From: Arcobacteraceae bacterium
GTDB taxonomy: Bacteria > Campylobacterota > Campylobacteria > Campylobacterales > Arcobacteraceae
Direction of reading: 5' to 3'
DNA: 49,283 nt
NCBI GenBank assembly: GCA_048268245.1
Contig: JBLWVX010000019.1
Location: forward strand, 1-49,283
A program made the position numbers and the translations under genes. The notes under the pieces were generated by a model, which was not told the origin of the DNA, ran no database searches, and saw only the letters and a program-made list of their open reading frames with translations. Shown here piece by piece: positions 1,826 to 22,258 of this stretch (positions are counted from its first letter, which is position 1; each line of letters begins with the position of its first letter).

Positions 1826-3147
1826 AAAACATAAACTGCTGCGAACCATCCAAATAAAATCAATGGAATATTATAGTGAATAAAAGTAGGAACTACAGTA
1901 TCCCATATATGGTCATGTTGCCCATCTACGTTTAATCCCGATGTTGGTCCTAGTGTACTATCTGAGGCTGGACTACCAGCATCACCAAGAGCTGCTGCTG
2001 TTCCTATAATTGCAATTGTTGCCATTGCAGAAAAATCCATTTGCATACATAAAGGTGCATAAATAGTAGCAATAATTGGAATAGTTGAAAAAGAGGACCC
2101 TATTCCCATAGTAATAAATAAACCAACAATTAGCATTAAAAATACTGCAAGAGATTTATTTTCACCTATTAAATCAGAGATAGATGCTACAAGTGTTTCA
2201 ACACCTCCTGTTTCATTTATCACATTTGCAAAACCATTTGCTGCTATCATAATAAAACCAATCATTCCCATCATCTTAAGACCTTTGGTAAAGAAGTCCT
2301 GTGTTTGATTTGCTTTAATAACTCCAGCAACTATAAAGATAATAAATCCTGCAAGAGAACCTAAAATAATAGACTTAGTATAAAGTTGTAAACCTAAAGC
2401 CGTAACTATTGATGCTAAAGCAATAACTATATAGAAGCTATTTATCTCATTTTTTTGAGATTCACTTTCAAGTATCATATCCACATTATAAACTCTTTTT
2501 TTTCTATATGTAAAAAACATAGCCGTAAGTAAACCCAAAAACATTCCAAGAACAGGAATAGACATTGCAATAGGTAATTGAGCACTTAATGCTTCTACAC
2601 CATTATCAACTAAGTTTTTAAGTAGAATCTCATTTAAAAATATACCTCCAAAACCAATAGGAAGTAACATATAAGTTGCAACTAAACCAAATGTAATAAC
2701 ACAAGCTACAACTCTTCTATCTAATTTTAATTCAGACATAGAATGAAGTAAAGGCGGGATTAAAATAGGAATAAATGCAATATGCACAGGTATAAGATTT
2801 TGAGAAGAAATAGCTGCTAATAAAATAAGTGTAAGCATTAAATATTTAATATAAATAAACTGCATAGAAGAAGAGCTATTACCTACTTTTTTTATTATCA
2901 TATTTGATAATAAATCTGTGATTCCAGACTTTGAAATAGCTACAGCGAAAGTTCCAAGCATAGCATAACTAAGTGCAATTGTAGCACCATCTCCTAGACC
3001 AGCATTAAAAGCTTTTATAGTTTCATTTATATCTAAACCTGCACTAAGTCCTCCTACAATTGCTCCAATTATTAAAGCAATAACAATATTTACTCTAACT
3101 AATGAGAGTAAGACCATAGCCATAACGGCAATAATTACAGAGTTCAT
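1822..3147 (-). CDS. Na+/H+ antiporter-family (YuiF-like) membrane transporter, possibly for amino acids
   Basis: 441 aa polytopic protein; family motifs [45 protein letters not shown]. Confidence 0.8.
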
Positions 3148-17497: not shown

Positions 17498-17516
17498 AGC
17501 TTAAAAGCTTTAGTTT
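17491..17516. terminator. Bidirectional terminator between yceI and selO
   Basis: aaactaaagctt-aa-aagctttagttt perfect inverted repeat. Confidence 0.7.
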
Positions 17517-18969
17517 AAGAAGAACAACTAAGTTTTAGATTTGCATACTCTTGTGGTGTAGGATTTGAATATCTCTCAAAATCTTTGTATTCATCAAAAG
17601 GATTTTGAGCAATTTTAAGTAAGTCTTTTACTAAACTATAATCTTCCTCATGGGCTTTTTCTATTGCTTCTTGAAGCATGTAGTTTTTGATAGTATATTT
17701 AGGATTTACTTTTTTCATAATTTTTTGTCTGCTTTCAAAACTACTTTCTTCTTTCTGGCATACATTTTTATATGAATTAAACCAATCAAATAAAGGCTCT
17801 CTAAAAACAGCAATATCAGTAATACTACTTAGATTATCAAAACTATCTAGCTTCGTAAGTCTATAGAAAAATACATTATAATCCATCTGTGAACTTTCTA
17901 AACTTCCTAATAACTCTTTTATTAAAGAGGCATTATTATCACTACTTTTAGAACCATCTAATCCTAATCTTTTGTTCATAAGATTTAAATATACATTTTC
18001 ATGTTGTGGTAAAAATGCGTGTAAATACTCTATAGCTTTTTCTTCATCTATTATACTGCCCATTGCATTTGCTAAAACCATCAAGTTCCATCTAGCTACA
18101 TATGGCTGATTATTATAAGAGTATCGCCCTTCACTATCTGTATGATTACAAATACAGTTTTTATCAAAATAATCCATAAAAGCATACGGCCCATAATCAA
18201 TAGTAAGGCCTGCCATAGAGAAGTTATCAGTATTTAAAACTCCATGCATAAAGCCATATGCTTGCCAATAAGCTACAAGTTCACTACTTCTATCAACTAA
18301 CTCATAAAACATTTTTTGATATTTATTTTCTTCATTTTTTAAGTGAGGATATGACTGATTTATCACATAATCTGCAAGTTGAGTTATATTTGCTTTAGCA
18401 TTATCAGTTCTTGCAAAAAACTCAAAAGTTCCTATTCTTATCCAAGAAGGTGAAAGTCTCATTACAATAGAACACGATTCACTTTCCCATTCTCTATGGG
18501 CAAATGATTCTGAGTCTATGATAGCTAAGGCTCTTGTAGTTGGTATTCCTAAAGCATGCATAGCTTCACTCATAATATATTCTCTAATTGAAGATCTAAG
18601 AACTGCTTTTCCATCACCTTGTCTTGAATATTTTGTAAGACCTGAACCTTTTGTTTGCAAGTGCCAACCGTTTATGCTTCCTAAGTTTATAGCTCTTCCA
18701 TCACCAAGTTGTGGTACAAAATACCCAAACTGATGACCTGCATAAACCATAGAATAAGGAATTGAGCCTTTTAAAACCTTCTTTCCATTCATAAAATCTA
18801 AAAAATCTTGCGTCTCACACTCTTCATAATCTAAACCTATTAAATCACAGGCTTGTTTGTTAAAAGAAACTAACTTGGGATTTAACACAGGTGTTGCATC
18901 TAACTTTTGATATAAACTCTCATCAAATTCAAAATAATCAATATTTACTTCTAATTCATCTAATTTCAT
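17515..18969 (-). CDS. selO: Protein adenylyltransferase SelO (YdiU), Cys-containing form
   Basis: YAGHQFG, QLGDGRA, KGSG, HGVLNTDN, TIDYGP, C-terminal SCSS. Confidence 0.95.
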   Translation of the reverse strand: MKLDELEVNIDYFEFDESLYQKLDATPVLNPKLVSFNKQACDLIGLDYEECETQDFLDFMNGKKVLKGSIPYSMVYAGHQFGYFVPQLGDGRAINLGSINGWHLQTKGSGLTKYSRQGDGKAVLRSSIREYIMSEAMHALGIPTTRALAIIDSESFAHREWESESCSIVMRLSPSWIRIGTFEFFARTDNAKANITQLADYVINQSYPHLKNEENKYQKMFYELVDRSSELVAYWQAYGFMHGVLNTDNFSMAGLTIDYGPYAFMDYFDKNCICNHTDSEGRYSYNNQPYVARWNLMVLANAMGSIIDEEKAIEYLHAFLPQHENVYLNLMNKRLGLDGSKSSDNNASLIKELLGSLESSQMDYNVFFYRLTKLDSFDNLSSITDIAVFREPLFDWFNSYKNVCQKEESSFESRQKIMKKVNPKYTIKNYMLQEAIEKAHEEDYSLVKDLLKIAQNPFDEYKDFERYSNPTPQEYANLKLSCSS

Positions 18970-19111
18970 ATATTTTCTCTTTTATAATTGTTTGTATTTT
19001 TTATAGATTATCTAAAAAATCCACAAAACAAGATAAATTTTGTCCTATTTAAACTTAACACAAACTACACGAAAAAAATCTATACTAATAAAAATTCAAA
19101 AAGGAATATCT

Positions 19112-19480
19112 ATGAGAAGAATAGTACTTGCAATGCTATTTTTTCTTTCAACTTCACTGTTTGCTTTTGAAGAGTTAACAGATGAAAATTTTGATGAGAA
19201 AATAGCAGGAAAAAATGTAATCGTTGATTTCCACGCAATCTGGTGAGGCTCTTGTAAGGTTCTAGAAAAGAACATGACAAAATATGCTACAAGTACTAAA
19301 CCCAATAATATCCACATCTATAAAGTAGACGTTTCAAAACAAAAAGAACTAACAAAAAGATTTAAAGCATTTGGTGTTCCAACACTTGTGTATCTTGAAG
19401 ATGGTATGGAAGTAGGAAGACACTCAGGCGTTTTAAGTGTAGAAGAACTTGAAGAAACTGTAAAAGAATACTTTGAATAA
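19112..19480 (+). CDS. Exported thioredoxin-family selenoprotein (122 aa, Sec45, WUGSC active site)
   Basis: Track ORFs 19040-19246 and 19274-19480 share a frame and are separated only by TGA 19244-19246. Read-through gives VIVDFHAIW-U-GSCK...KVDV...FGVPTL. AAGGA RBS at 19101; signal peptide ending SLFA. Confidence 0.88.
19244..19280 (+). promoter_or_regulatory. Bacterial SECIS-like hairpin
   Basis: Lower stem UUGU/ACAA, upper stem GUUCU/AGAAC, apical loop AGAAA with G at position 2, 17 nt between the UGA and the loop. Confidence 0.7.
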
Positions 19481-20761: not shown

Positions 20762-22258
20762 ATGAACAAAAACTATTTTAATCACATCCCAACAGGAGAA
20801 ACTCTACCTGTAAACAATGTACATGCGGTTTCAGTATCGATGCCCTATTTACAAGATGTGATTGATTATGAACTACAAACTCCCGAAATTCTTGACACTA
20901 TAAAAAGTGGTTATCCAAGGTTTGTACTTCATCCTTATTTAAAACAGCTTGGACTTTATATCAAAGAAAAATATAAAGTAAGTGATGATTATGAAGTAGT
21001 AGTGCTTAGTTCTCAAAAAGCTGTAAAGCTTGTAAGTGATAAATATTATATAAACAATAAGCTTGAAGTAGATGAAGCTTTTGGTGTTATCTTAGTTCAA
21101 AGAAATACTTGTCAATTACAAAGAGTTTTAAGTTATATTCAACATGTAGGCTGCAACCTATCTTCAAGACTTGCTGAAAAGTATCTTTATGATTTAGGAT
21201 TGATTGATAAAATACATGAAGAAGAGCTGGAAGAAGAATCAAAAGCTCATGATATTATCATTGACACACTAGCTAGTGCTTATAATCAACCAAAAGATAA
21301 AGTATGCCTAGCACCATCTGGAATGAATGCAATTTATTCAGTTATAAGAGGTATCAACTCTATTCAAACACACAATGGAAGAACTGTTTTAGTTCAGTTT
21401 GGTTGGCTTTATTTGGATACTATGAATATAGTAAATTATCACTATCAAGAATCAAAAGTTTTTCCTGATATTTTAAATCTTGATTTACTAGAAGAGTATT
21501 TAAAAACAGATGGCTTAAAAGTTAGCGCCATTATCACAGAAGTTCCAACAAACCCTCTTTTAAAAACTGTAAATATAAAAAGATTAAGAAAGTTATGTGA
21601 TGAGTATAATATACCTTTAGTTATTGATACAACTTTTGCTACACCTTATAATCTAAACTTAGAAGATTACGCAGATATTTTTGTAGAATCTCTTACTAAG
21701 TTTGCTTGTGGAAATGCTGATGTTTTAATGGGTGCAATTATTTTAAATAAAAGAAATAATCTATCACATATGACAACAGAGTTTTTCAAACATTGTGACC
21801 CAGTTTATATAAAAGATAAACAAAGATTAGCACTACAAATAAAAGATTATAAAAACAGAGTTAAAAAAATAAGTTCAAATACAAAAGCCTTAGCTGCTTA
21901 TTTTGAAGAGTGTTCTTATATTGACAAAGTCTTTTACTGTTTAAATGAAGAAAACAAAGACAACTATTCTCAAACAATGAGAGATGACAATAGCCTTACA
22001 GGTATTATATCTGTTACTTTTAATAGAGCATTTAAAAAAGTATATGACAAACTAAACTTTGCCAAAGGACCTAGCTTAGGTACTGAATTTACACTTCTTA
22101 TGCCATATACTTATTTAGCTCATTGGGATTTAATTCAATCAAAGCAAGGAAACAAGTTCTTAGAAGAAATTGGTCTTCCTATAGATTTACTTAGAATTTC
22201 TGTTGGAGTAGAACCAATTGATGAGATTATAAATGAATTTAAAAAACTAGAAGAATAA
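20762..22258 (+). CDS. Long-form cystathionine gamma-synthase-like PLP enzyme (fungal Str2-type architecture)
   Basis: N-terminal HAVSVSMP...GYPRFVLH extension; EVPTNPLL, SLTKF, KGPSLGT.FTL, RISVGVE. Confidence 0.8.
   Translation: MNKNYFNHIPTGETLPVNNVHAVSVSMPYLQDVIDYELQTPEILDTIKSGYPRFVLHPYLKQLGLYIKEKYKVSDDYEVVVLSSQKAVKLVSDKYYINNKLEVDEAFGVILVQRNTCQLQRVLSYIQHVGCNLSSRLAEKYLYDLGLIDKIHEEELEEESKAHDIIIDTLASAYNQPKDKVCLAPSGMNAIYSVIRGINSIQTHNGRTVLVQFGWLYLDTMNIVNYHYQESKVFPDILNLDLLEEYLKTDGLKVSAIITEVPTNPLLKTVNIKRLRKLCDEYNIPLVIDTTFATPYNLNLEDYADIFVESLTKFACGNADVLMGAIILNKRNNLSHMTTEFFKHCDPVYIKDKQRLALQIKDYKNRVKKISSNTKALAAYFEECSYIDKVFYCLNEENKDNYSQTMRDDNSLTGIISVTFNRAFKKVYDKLNFAKGPSLGTEFTLLMPYTYLAHWDLIQSKQGNKFLEEIGLPIDLLRISVGVEPIDEIINEFKKLEE

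Follow-up and report, generated by a model that had tools for sequence, protein, structure and literature searches.

A Probable Unannotated Selenocysteine-Containing Thioredoxin With a Signal-Peptide-Like N-Terminus in the Arcobacteraceae

Introduction

Does the UGA codon that divides a small thioredoxin gene of an Arcobacteraceae bacterium stop translation, or does it encode selenocysteine (Sec, U)? The gene lies at positions 19112–19480 of contig JBLWVX010000019.1 (assembly GCA_048268245.1), and the window analyzed here is the whole of that contig, 49,283 nucleotides (nt) in length; it is contig C19 of a source genome of 2.68 Mb in 57 contigs. An earlier sequence-only reading had proposed an exported selenoprotein at this locus, and here that proposal is followed through the source genome, its relatives, and the published record of bacterial selenoproteins. 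Judged from sequence comparison, the locus probably (at a rough probability of 0.88) encodes a genuine, unannotated selenoprotein, a thioredoxin-fold oxidoreductase with Sec as its attacking residue.

A Thioredoxin Gene Divided by a Single UGA

When the TGA is read through, positions 19112–19480 of the forward strand form a single frame of 122 codons with a TAA stop, in which the TGA at 19244–19246 is the lone in-frame stop. Its context, TGG TGA GGC TCT TGT, translates as W-U-G-S-C, and it occupies the position of the first Cys of the WCxxC thioredoxin motif. Under translation table 11, the same DNA appears as a 44-codon part, contained within a 68-residue open reading frame (ORF) at 19040–19246, and a separate 68-residue ORF at 19274–19480. 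The proposal that these two short ORFs are halves of one gene is borne out by the read-through product, which matches the thioredoxin family PF00085 from one end to the other (76 bits, cut-off 23.5, E 2.6e-21, profile positions 3–103 of 103). The TGA falls exactly at the nucleophilic Cys, and the ribosome binding site and the remaining blocks of the fold (VIVDF, residues 36–40; KVDV, 71–74; GVPT, 88–91) are intact, all as had been described.

Annotation pipelines overlook the gene, as had been anticipated. The existing gene call on the source contig is 68 residues long, as is the GenBank entry for the Arcobacter roscoffensis orthologue (UTJ07249.1, “thioredoxin family protein”), and full-length database entries occur only with W in place of the UGA residue (P0002, P0003, P0005, and P0008). 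Among named organisms, Arcobacter sp. YIC-464 and YIC-310 are the closest.

Selenocysteine Machinery and Genetic Code

Contig C15 of the source genome encodes selA (571 bits), selB (293 bits), and selD (356 bits), all above curated cut-offs, along with a tRNA-Sec that exceeds the gathering threshold of the Rfam tRNA-Sec model and is called by ARAGORN as tRNA-SeC with anticodon tca. With selA, selB, selC, and selD all found, the objection that the genome has no Sec machinery fails. The selD gene (G000:C15:22167) itself has one in-frame TGA and is a selenoprotein gene in this genome, and the formate dehydrogenase alpha gene (fdh; G000:C15:11213, minus strand) also has one. The selD and fdh UGA codons have G-rich apical loops, and both genes lie close to selA, selB, and the tRNA-Sec on the one contig.

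The database entries with W would be correct if TGA were read as Trp (in a code 4-like manner), or if a near-cognate tRNA suppressed it, so that the motif became W-W-G-S-C. We give this account next to no credence: TGA is a rare but ordinary stop that terminates 116 of the 1329 ORFs of at least 250 codons, the tca anticodon occurs on tRNA-SeC alone among the 41 tRNAs found by ARAGORN, and two homologues (L079 and L082) themselves terminate with a TGA stop. Furthermore, homologues align Cys at the TGA and never Trp, and a W as nucleophile would abolish the redox motif.

Conservation of the UGA and of the Downstream Half

Within its own genus, an orthologue with 90–92% identity is found in four of six genomes, with the TGA in each. 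Across the family (184 genomes), a homologue at E ≤ 1e-20 occurs in 110 genomes, and 34 homologues, from 31 of the 184 genomes and 8 of the 22 genera, have exactly one TGA. In all 34 of these Sec forms the TGA occupies the identical x-U-x-x-C column, which is conserved down to approximately 40% identity, and the genes are otherwise intact, with 119–130 codons and no further stops or frameshifts. Their motifs are WUGSC, WUSSC, WUYAC, WUFAC, WUSAC, WUGAC, WUPSC, and WUPAC, as well as YUGSC, YUGAC, YUPAC, YUEAC, TUGAC, TUSAC, and GUSAC. Among the Cys-form homologues, of which 15 of roughly 95 were compared, TGT stands at the TGA column in 15/15, with 14 WCPPC motifs and one WCPSC. The TGA is thus not specific to a strain, and alternates with TGT among relatives.

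Of the 184 family genomes, 107 encode selA, as do 29 of the 31 that have a TGA form; the two TGA-form genomes without it are assemblies of 86% and 88% completeness. Kinship makes these genomes non-independent observations, and we read this co-occurrence as a pattern and not as a statistic. In a class-level sample of 401 genomes, none of the 378 outside the family yielded a close TGA form. Two matches outside the family that appeared to have one TGA were rejected, each being an ordinary TrxA of the cytoplasm whose upstream stop had been read through.

Both halves of the gene are under purifying selection: among the four genus orthologues, the ratio of nonsynonymous to synonymous polymorphism (pN/pS) is 0.05–0.17 upstream of the TGA and 0.11–0.27 downstream. 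Only 5 of the 34 Sec forms have the internal ATG (M55) at which the annotated 68-residue ORF begins, so the downstream half is not an independent gene. Additionally, four metatranscriptome runs, each from a different study, yielded contigs that cross 19244–19246 with the TGA unaltered.

These data bear on the possibility of a pseudogene, in which a TGT to TGA nonsense mutation at the catalytic Cys would have left two decaying halves. Such a mutation needs one base change, pipelines do handle the gene as broken or truncated, and the genome's own Cys paralogue might take over the function. A decaying gene would nonetheless have to be reconciled with a TGA held in one column of 34 otherwise intact genes from 31 genomes, with the downstream pN/pS values, with a hairpin that covaries (see below), and with the 16 of 31 genomes that have only Sec forms at E ≤ 1e-20. 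We consider it very improbable.

The Putative SECIS Element

A hairpin like a Sec insertion sequence (SECIS) had been described directly downstream, in two tiers, with 17 nt between the UGA and a loop containing a G, and it is present at 19252–19280. In the source gene it starts 5 nt after the UGA and consists of UUGU/ACAA below GUUCU-AGAAA-AGAAC. With the U of the UGA numbered as nt 1, the structure is foldable in all Sec forms, with a lower stem (nt 9–12/34–37), a 1 × 1 mismatch, an upper stem (nt 14–20/26–32) of which nt 16–20/26–30 are the apical stem, and a 5-nt loop (nt 21–25). The loop reads AGGUA or AGGUG in most Sec forms and AGAAA or AGAGA in the source genus, and its G22 (19265) is invariant across Sec forms. 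At position 19267, an A/G polymorphism (loop AGAAA or AGAGA) is seen in the three congeneric species and also in contigs of each of the four metatranscriptome runs.

In the covariation alignment, whose 34 Sec forms give 30 distinct rows, pairing is possible in 91.2% of cells, against 34–65% when the 3′ partners are shifted by one to three columns. Three pairs compensate, with 32 cells involved and a covariation score that none of 500 shuffles matched: pair 16–30 (GC 18, AU 9, GU 3), pair 17–29 (UA 19, CG 10, one unpaired), and pair 19–27 (UA 17, CG 13). Both the conservation of the hairpin and the covariation of its stems had been named beforehand as support to look for. The compensatory changes cross codons (GUU/AAC, ACU/AGU, GCU/AGC, and AUU/AAU, giving V..N, T..S, A..S, and I..N) and alter residues, which argues that the RNA element constrains the overlapping protein. 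Between residues that are the same, codon identity in Sec forms is 0.81 in the hairpin and 0.61 elsewhere; in Cys forms the values are 0.61 and 0.67.

The selD and fdh genes of the source genome serve as an internal standard. Their apical loops start at nt 21 and nt 22, and the thioredoxin loop spans nt 21–25; in contrast to their loops (GGG and GGGGU), the AGAAA loop is not G-rich, and the element is very AU-rich. It shares with the minimal bacterial SECIS of the Escherichia coli fdhF type a 5-bp apical stem shortly after the UGA and the invariant loop G. An Rfam scan of the whole window at gathering thresholds returned no family; to our knowledge Rfam holds no curated bacterial SECIS model, and this null result therefore says little. 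A covariance model built from the 34 hairpins (R1) found only its own gene in the source genome (59.9 bits) and did not recover the selD and fdh elements, and is thus too sequence-specific to be a general SECIS detector. The part of Cravedi et al. (2015; PMC4607533) that describes the epsilonproteobacterial SECIS gives it as a 5/6-bp hairpin a few nt past the UGA, with covarying pairs 1–5 and one invariant loop G, and the thioredoxin element agrees with that description in its stem, loop G, and covariation.

Three WCPPC paralogues of the source genus (L028–L030) can form a hairpin at the same place, AAGUUUU/AAAACUU over CUUG/CAAG, without the loop G. It could be a remnant, a SECIS precursor, or a side effect of the shared K-V-L-x-x-K-L stretch.

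Fold, Family Assignment, and Predicted Export

A profile search of the PDB matched thioredoxins and protein disulfide isomerase domains, with E from 1e-18 to 6e-41 among the 60 matches listed. In an AlphaFold2 model (49-sequence alignment, C substituted for U; mean predicted local distance difference test score, pLDDT, 91.1), residues 20–122 form a classical thioredoxin fold, while residues 1–19 are of low confidence and outside the fold. In U45-G-S-C48, residue 45 sits at the N-terminus of helix 46–61. Position 45 (C or U), C48, and P90 are invariant in the 49 family members. The TrxA equivalog model TIGR01068 scores 75.5 bits, below its cut-off of 96.8; this, together with the signal-like N-terminal extension, makes the product a thioredoxin-family protein and not TrxA. 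None of the NCBIfam selenoprotein models reaches its cut-off (the best, seleno_TsoB NF045694, gives 35.2 bits against 805).

The N-terminus has two K/R in its first five residues and a best 10-residue hydropathy window of 2.86, compared with 0.67 in a cytoplasmic TrxA control. All 49 members share the arrangement M-K/R-K/R, a hydrophobic stretch of approximately 15 residues, and S-L-F-A-F-E, with F17, A18, and E20 invariant. This conserved pattern, and the position of residues 1–19 outside the predicted fold, points to a cleaved Sec-type signal peptide (Sec here denoting the secretion pathway).

Alternatively, the protein could be a real selenoprotein that is not soluble in the periplasm, being either held by an uncleaved membrane anchor, as in the CcmG/ResA/TlpA type, or cytoplasmic. 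Many periplasmic thioredoxin-like reductases are membrane-anchored, and the putative cleavage site has Leu at −3, where Ala or Val is more usual; the hydrophobic core of only about 15 residues and the invariant F17-A18/E20, which resembles a conserved processing site, argue the other way. The linkage of the paralogue to dsbD (see below) fits an extracytoplasmic location with or without an anchor. We assign this alternative a small chance, and favor an exported, processed protein.

Phylogeny of Sec and Cys Forms

In a maximum-likelihood tree of 50 rows, which comprise the 34 Sec forms, the 15 Cys forms, and the cytoplasmic TrxA as a long outgroup branch, all Sec forms fall in one group (support 91/83). 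One Cys form, L052 (G170:C25, locus 1486–1863), is nested inside the Sec clade beside a WUPSC gene; it has the motif WCPSC (TGT), and all 11 hairpin pairs are kept. It looks like a recent Sec-to-Cys reversion that carries a fossil SECIS. The tree fits a history of one Cys-to-Sec switch, after which genes were duplicated inside the family and one of them recently reverted. In another genome (G169), the Sec form L045 directly adjoins a Cys-form paralogue (G169:C1:911444–912203, with the paralogue at 911868–912203 and 38% identity); that genome has one more of each form, which brings its family members to four.

Genomic Context and the DsbD Connection

The source genome encodes a Cys paralogue (WCPPC; L030, G000:C16:26014–26364, minus strand) that is 42% identical to the Sec thioredoxin. 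The two have in common their length, the signal-peptide-like N-terminus, the SLFAFE motif, and the fold family; they differ in that the paralogue has Cys (TGT) and CPPC in place of UGSC, and adjoins dsbD, whereas the Sec thioredoxin adjoins SelO. In 14/14 WCPPC loci, dsbD lies 13–16 nt downstream (3 nt in one locus), with a divergent rhodanese gene upstream, and a family scan of L030 confirmed the identity of dsbD (DsbD_N and DsbD_TM; NF001419, 388 bits). Another genus has the Sec form itself in the rhodanese-thioredoxin-dsbD slot (L054 and L062). Because the Cys paralogue is always found just upstream of dsbD, we infer a periplasmic reductase role for the Sec form, with DsbD as the presumed electron donor.

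Beside the Sec-thioredoxin-dsbD cluster of L054 (G164:C5), there are rhodanese-domain genes at 1991–2332 (+) and 2329–2739 (−), which have a weak, sub-threshold match to NF041203, “rhodanese-related (seleno)protein.”

At the source locus (Table 1), the divergent neighbor is a Cys-form SelO, and SelO is upstream in 10 of the 20 Sec loci that have 1.5-kb flanks (two genera), as well as in the Cys locus L052. Eukaryotic SelO has Sec near its C-terminus; here the C-terminus reads ...L-S-C-S-S, with Cys at the antepenultimate position. The palindrome between the two genes is conserved in 10 of 11 SelO-adjacent loci, from two genera, and is not evident in L045; we take its architecture to resemble that of a Fur-family box. 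It is not enriched across the genome (11 matches against 8–16 expected), and no regulon could therefore be proposed. Downstream, the first of two pyridoxal phosphate (PLP)-dependent enzyme genes is a conserved neighbor in all four genus orthologue loci, and the second has an N-terminal extension of approximately 180 residues without a family match.

The terminator noted earlier corresponds to a strong hairpin after the stop codon; a simple consensus terminator scan called no site, this hairpin included. Promoter-like sites were at chance (5 against 4.6 expected). RNA-library contigs from three studies begin at 19103–19110, a weak hint for the promoter.

Table 1. Features of the selenoprotein candidate locus and its neighbors; coordinates refer to the window.
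Feature	Position	Strand	Evidence
Complete coding sequence, probable selenoprotein thioredoxin	19112..19480	+	PF00085 76 bits, E 2.6e-21; AlphaFold2 pLDDT 91.1
UGA, probably read as selenocysteine U45, nucleophile of W-U-G-S-C	19244..19246	+	TGA in 34/34 Sec forms, TGT in 15/15 Cys forms
Resolving cysteine C48 (TGT)	19253..19255	+	Invariant in 49 family members
P90 codon, thioredoxin cis-Pro position (by sequence)	19379..19381	+	Invariant in 49 sequences
Putative SECIS hairpin	19252..19280	+	Lower stem 19252–55/19277–80; apical 5-bp stem 19259–63/19269–73; loop AGAAA 19264–68
Predicted Sec-type signal peptide, residues 1–18 (MRR, hydrophobic core, SLFA/FE)	19112..19165	+	Heuristics, conservation
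Shine-Dalgarno sequence AAGGA, 6 nt 5′ of ATG	19101..19105	+	Direct reading; AAAGGA-like block kept across 11 aligned upstream loci
Inferred promoter −10-like TATACT	19081..19086	+	Inside block conserved between two genera
Terminator-like hairpin abutting the stop codon	19481..19505	+	−13.5 kcal/mol, z −4.99, 0/200 shuffles as stable
SelO/YdiU protein adenylyltransferase, Cys form, divergent from the thioredoxin gene	17515..18969	−	PF02696 438 bits; NF000658 507 bits
7-1-7 palindrome AGATAAA-T-TTTGTCC between SelO and thioredoxin genes; putative operator	19031..19045	.	Upstream alignment
Cys/Met-metabolism PLP-dependent enzyme pair, PF01053	19599..20750 and 20762..22258	+	Family match

Points Against a Selenoprotein and the Efficiency of Read-Through

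Several observations weigh against the selenoprotein interpretation, or against parts of it. The hairpin of the source gene taken alone over 45 nt has −7.8 kcal/mol and z −1.2, with 24 of 200 shuffles as stable, and over 29 nt its excess stability is modest (z −2.7, 3/200 shuffles); it is weak by itself, so that the support for it is comparative. Its AGAAA loop retains just G22 of the family consensus AGGUA. The Cys-bearing rows (16, including the cytoplasmic TrxA, L026) form 4–11 of the 11 pairs, with L052 and L070 forming 11/11, and on a 14-row Cys alignment 67.5% of cells pair; on that alignment neither pairing nor covariation is above shuffles, as 461 of 500 reach the observed pairing. The Sec grouping and the tree backbone have only moderate support (91/83), and kinship among the genomes means that the shuffle and co-occurrence figures overstate significance. 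The neighbors of the source gene are SelO and PLP enzymes, with no dsbD or ccdA linkage at its own locus, and the DsbD link accordingly rests on paralogy. The RNA-library contigs indicate presence in RNA libraries, which is no proof of transcription and gives no transcript ends. Finally, both Sec insertion at UGA 19244 and export of the product are what we infer from the comparisons above.

The degeneration of the loop to AGAAA/AGAGA in the source genus raises a further alternative, that the UGA mostly terminates there, as a selenium-sensing or regulatory device or through inefficient read-through, with a 44-residue peptide as the main product. The loops of all four genus orthologues are without the GGU of the family consensus, the source hairpin is thermodynamically weak, and bacterial Sec insertion is generally inefficient. 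However, the 77 codons after the TGA are under purifying selection within this same genus, the apical stem keeps its 5 bp and the loop its G22, and the element satisfies the SECIS description in the relevant part of Cravedi et al. (2015; PMC4607533). Predominant termination appears improbable to us, and a functional, full-length selenoprotein is preferred.

Relation to Known Selenoproteins

The sequence-only reading had called periplasmic Sec unusual for a simple thioredoxin, which overstates the case. The table of a 2026 review (PMC13188914) includes “Thioredoxin (Trx) PF00085 UxxC” among characterized prokaryotic selenoproteins, citing Kim et al. 2015 for Treponema denticola, and it also lists UGC-containing TlpA-type, thiol:disulfide-interchange, and “Selenoprotein O-like” selenoproteins; the tables of PMC1794560 give Trx, DsbA-like, DsbG-like, and thiol:disulfide-interchange selenoprotein families.

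The present clade shares with the T. denticola UxxC family the PF00085 domain, Sec in place of the N-terminal Cys of CxxC, a small single-domain architecture, and a SECIS right after the UGA. Classical thioredoxin is cytoplasmic, whereas this clade has a signal-peptide-like N-terminus; its dipeptide is GS, GA, YA, or PA and not GP, it falls below the TIGR01068 cut-off, and among the genomes searched it occurs in a single family of Campylobacteria. Selenoproteins of the Dsb and TlpA types likewise carry Sec in the redox motif of a thiol-disulfide oxidoreductase, and they differ in having DsbA, DsbG, or TlpA/redoxin architectures in place of a minimal PF00085 thioredoxin. Dsb proteins, such as DsbA and DsbG of E. 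coli, are periplasmic.

In Tables S2/S3 of Cravedi et al. (2015; PMC4607533), the single Sec-thioredoxin in Epsilonproteobacteria is the “Tr” of Nitratifractor salsuginis (YP_004167611.1, 130 residues). It is described as a U-thioredoxin from the same class and is of similar length, 130 against 122 residues. No Tr entry is apparent in that supplement for three Arcobacter genomes, in a table whose column parsing is uncertain. In the literature searched, which included few papers from subscription journals, no Sec-thioredoxin with a signal peptide was described for the Arcobacter group. With Trx and Dsb-like selenoproteins already known, the protein belongs to a new clade within an established kind and does not overturn what is known of selenoproteins: it is an exported-looking, previously unannotated clade of the known UxxC thioredoxin selenoproteins.

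Proposed Mechanism and Implications

In the mechanism that we propose, UGA 19244 would be recoded during translation by SelB-GTP-Sec-tRNA(Sec), with the hairpin offering SelB an apical stem of 5 bp and the invariant G of the loop in a geometry like that of the selD and fdh elements of the same genome. Residues 1–18 would serve as a Sec-type signal peptide, cleaved at SLFA/FE, and its removal would leave a 104-residue mature protein in the periplasm, where it may cycle between the selenol/thiol and selenylsulfide (U45-C48) states. By analogy with the WCPPC paralogue, it would most likely act as a DsbD-dependent periplasmic reductant. A broader and tentative suggestion, which we think more likely to be incomplete or wrong than right as a whole, is that an exported thioredoxin clade switched to Sec, with no Cys paralogue found at E ≤ 1e-20 in about half of its genomes, and passes on DsbD reducing power via a selenol; the pairing with SelO and the operator-like site would then hint at a co-regulated, selenium-linked redox-stress module.

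The finding corrects an annotation error in at least 31 genomes, where a 122-residue selenoprotein is recorded as a 68-residue fragment or with an active-site Trp. It also adds another family to the small selenoproteome of Arcobacter-group bacteria; for the class as a whole, earlier surveys had Fdh, SelD, SelW-like, peroxidase, and DUF466 proteins, with Sec-thioredoxin solely in Nitratifractor. The clade provides a compact natural series for Sec/Cys exchange, with Sec and Cys paralogues in one genome and an apparent revertant that retains its SECIS, and a neat case of co-constraint between SECIS and protein, in which the RNA element shapes the amino acid sequence that it overlaps. If both export and the DsbD link are true, this thioredoxin would offer a simple model for selenol chemistry in the oxidizing periplasm.

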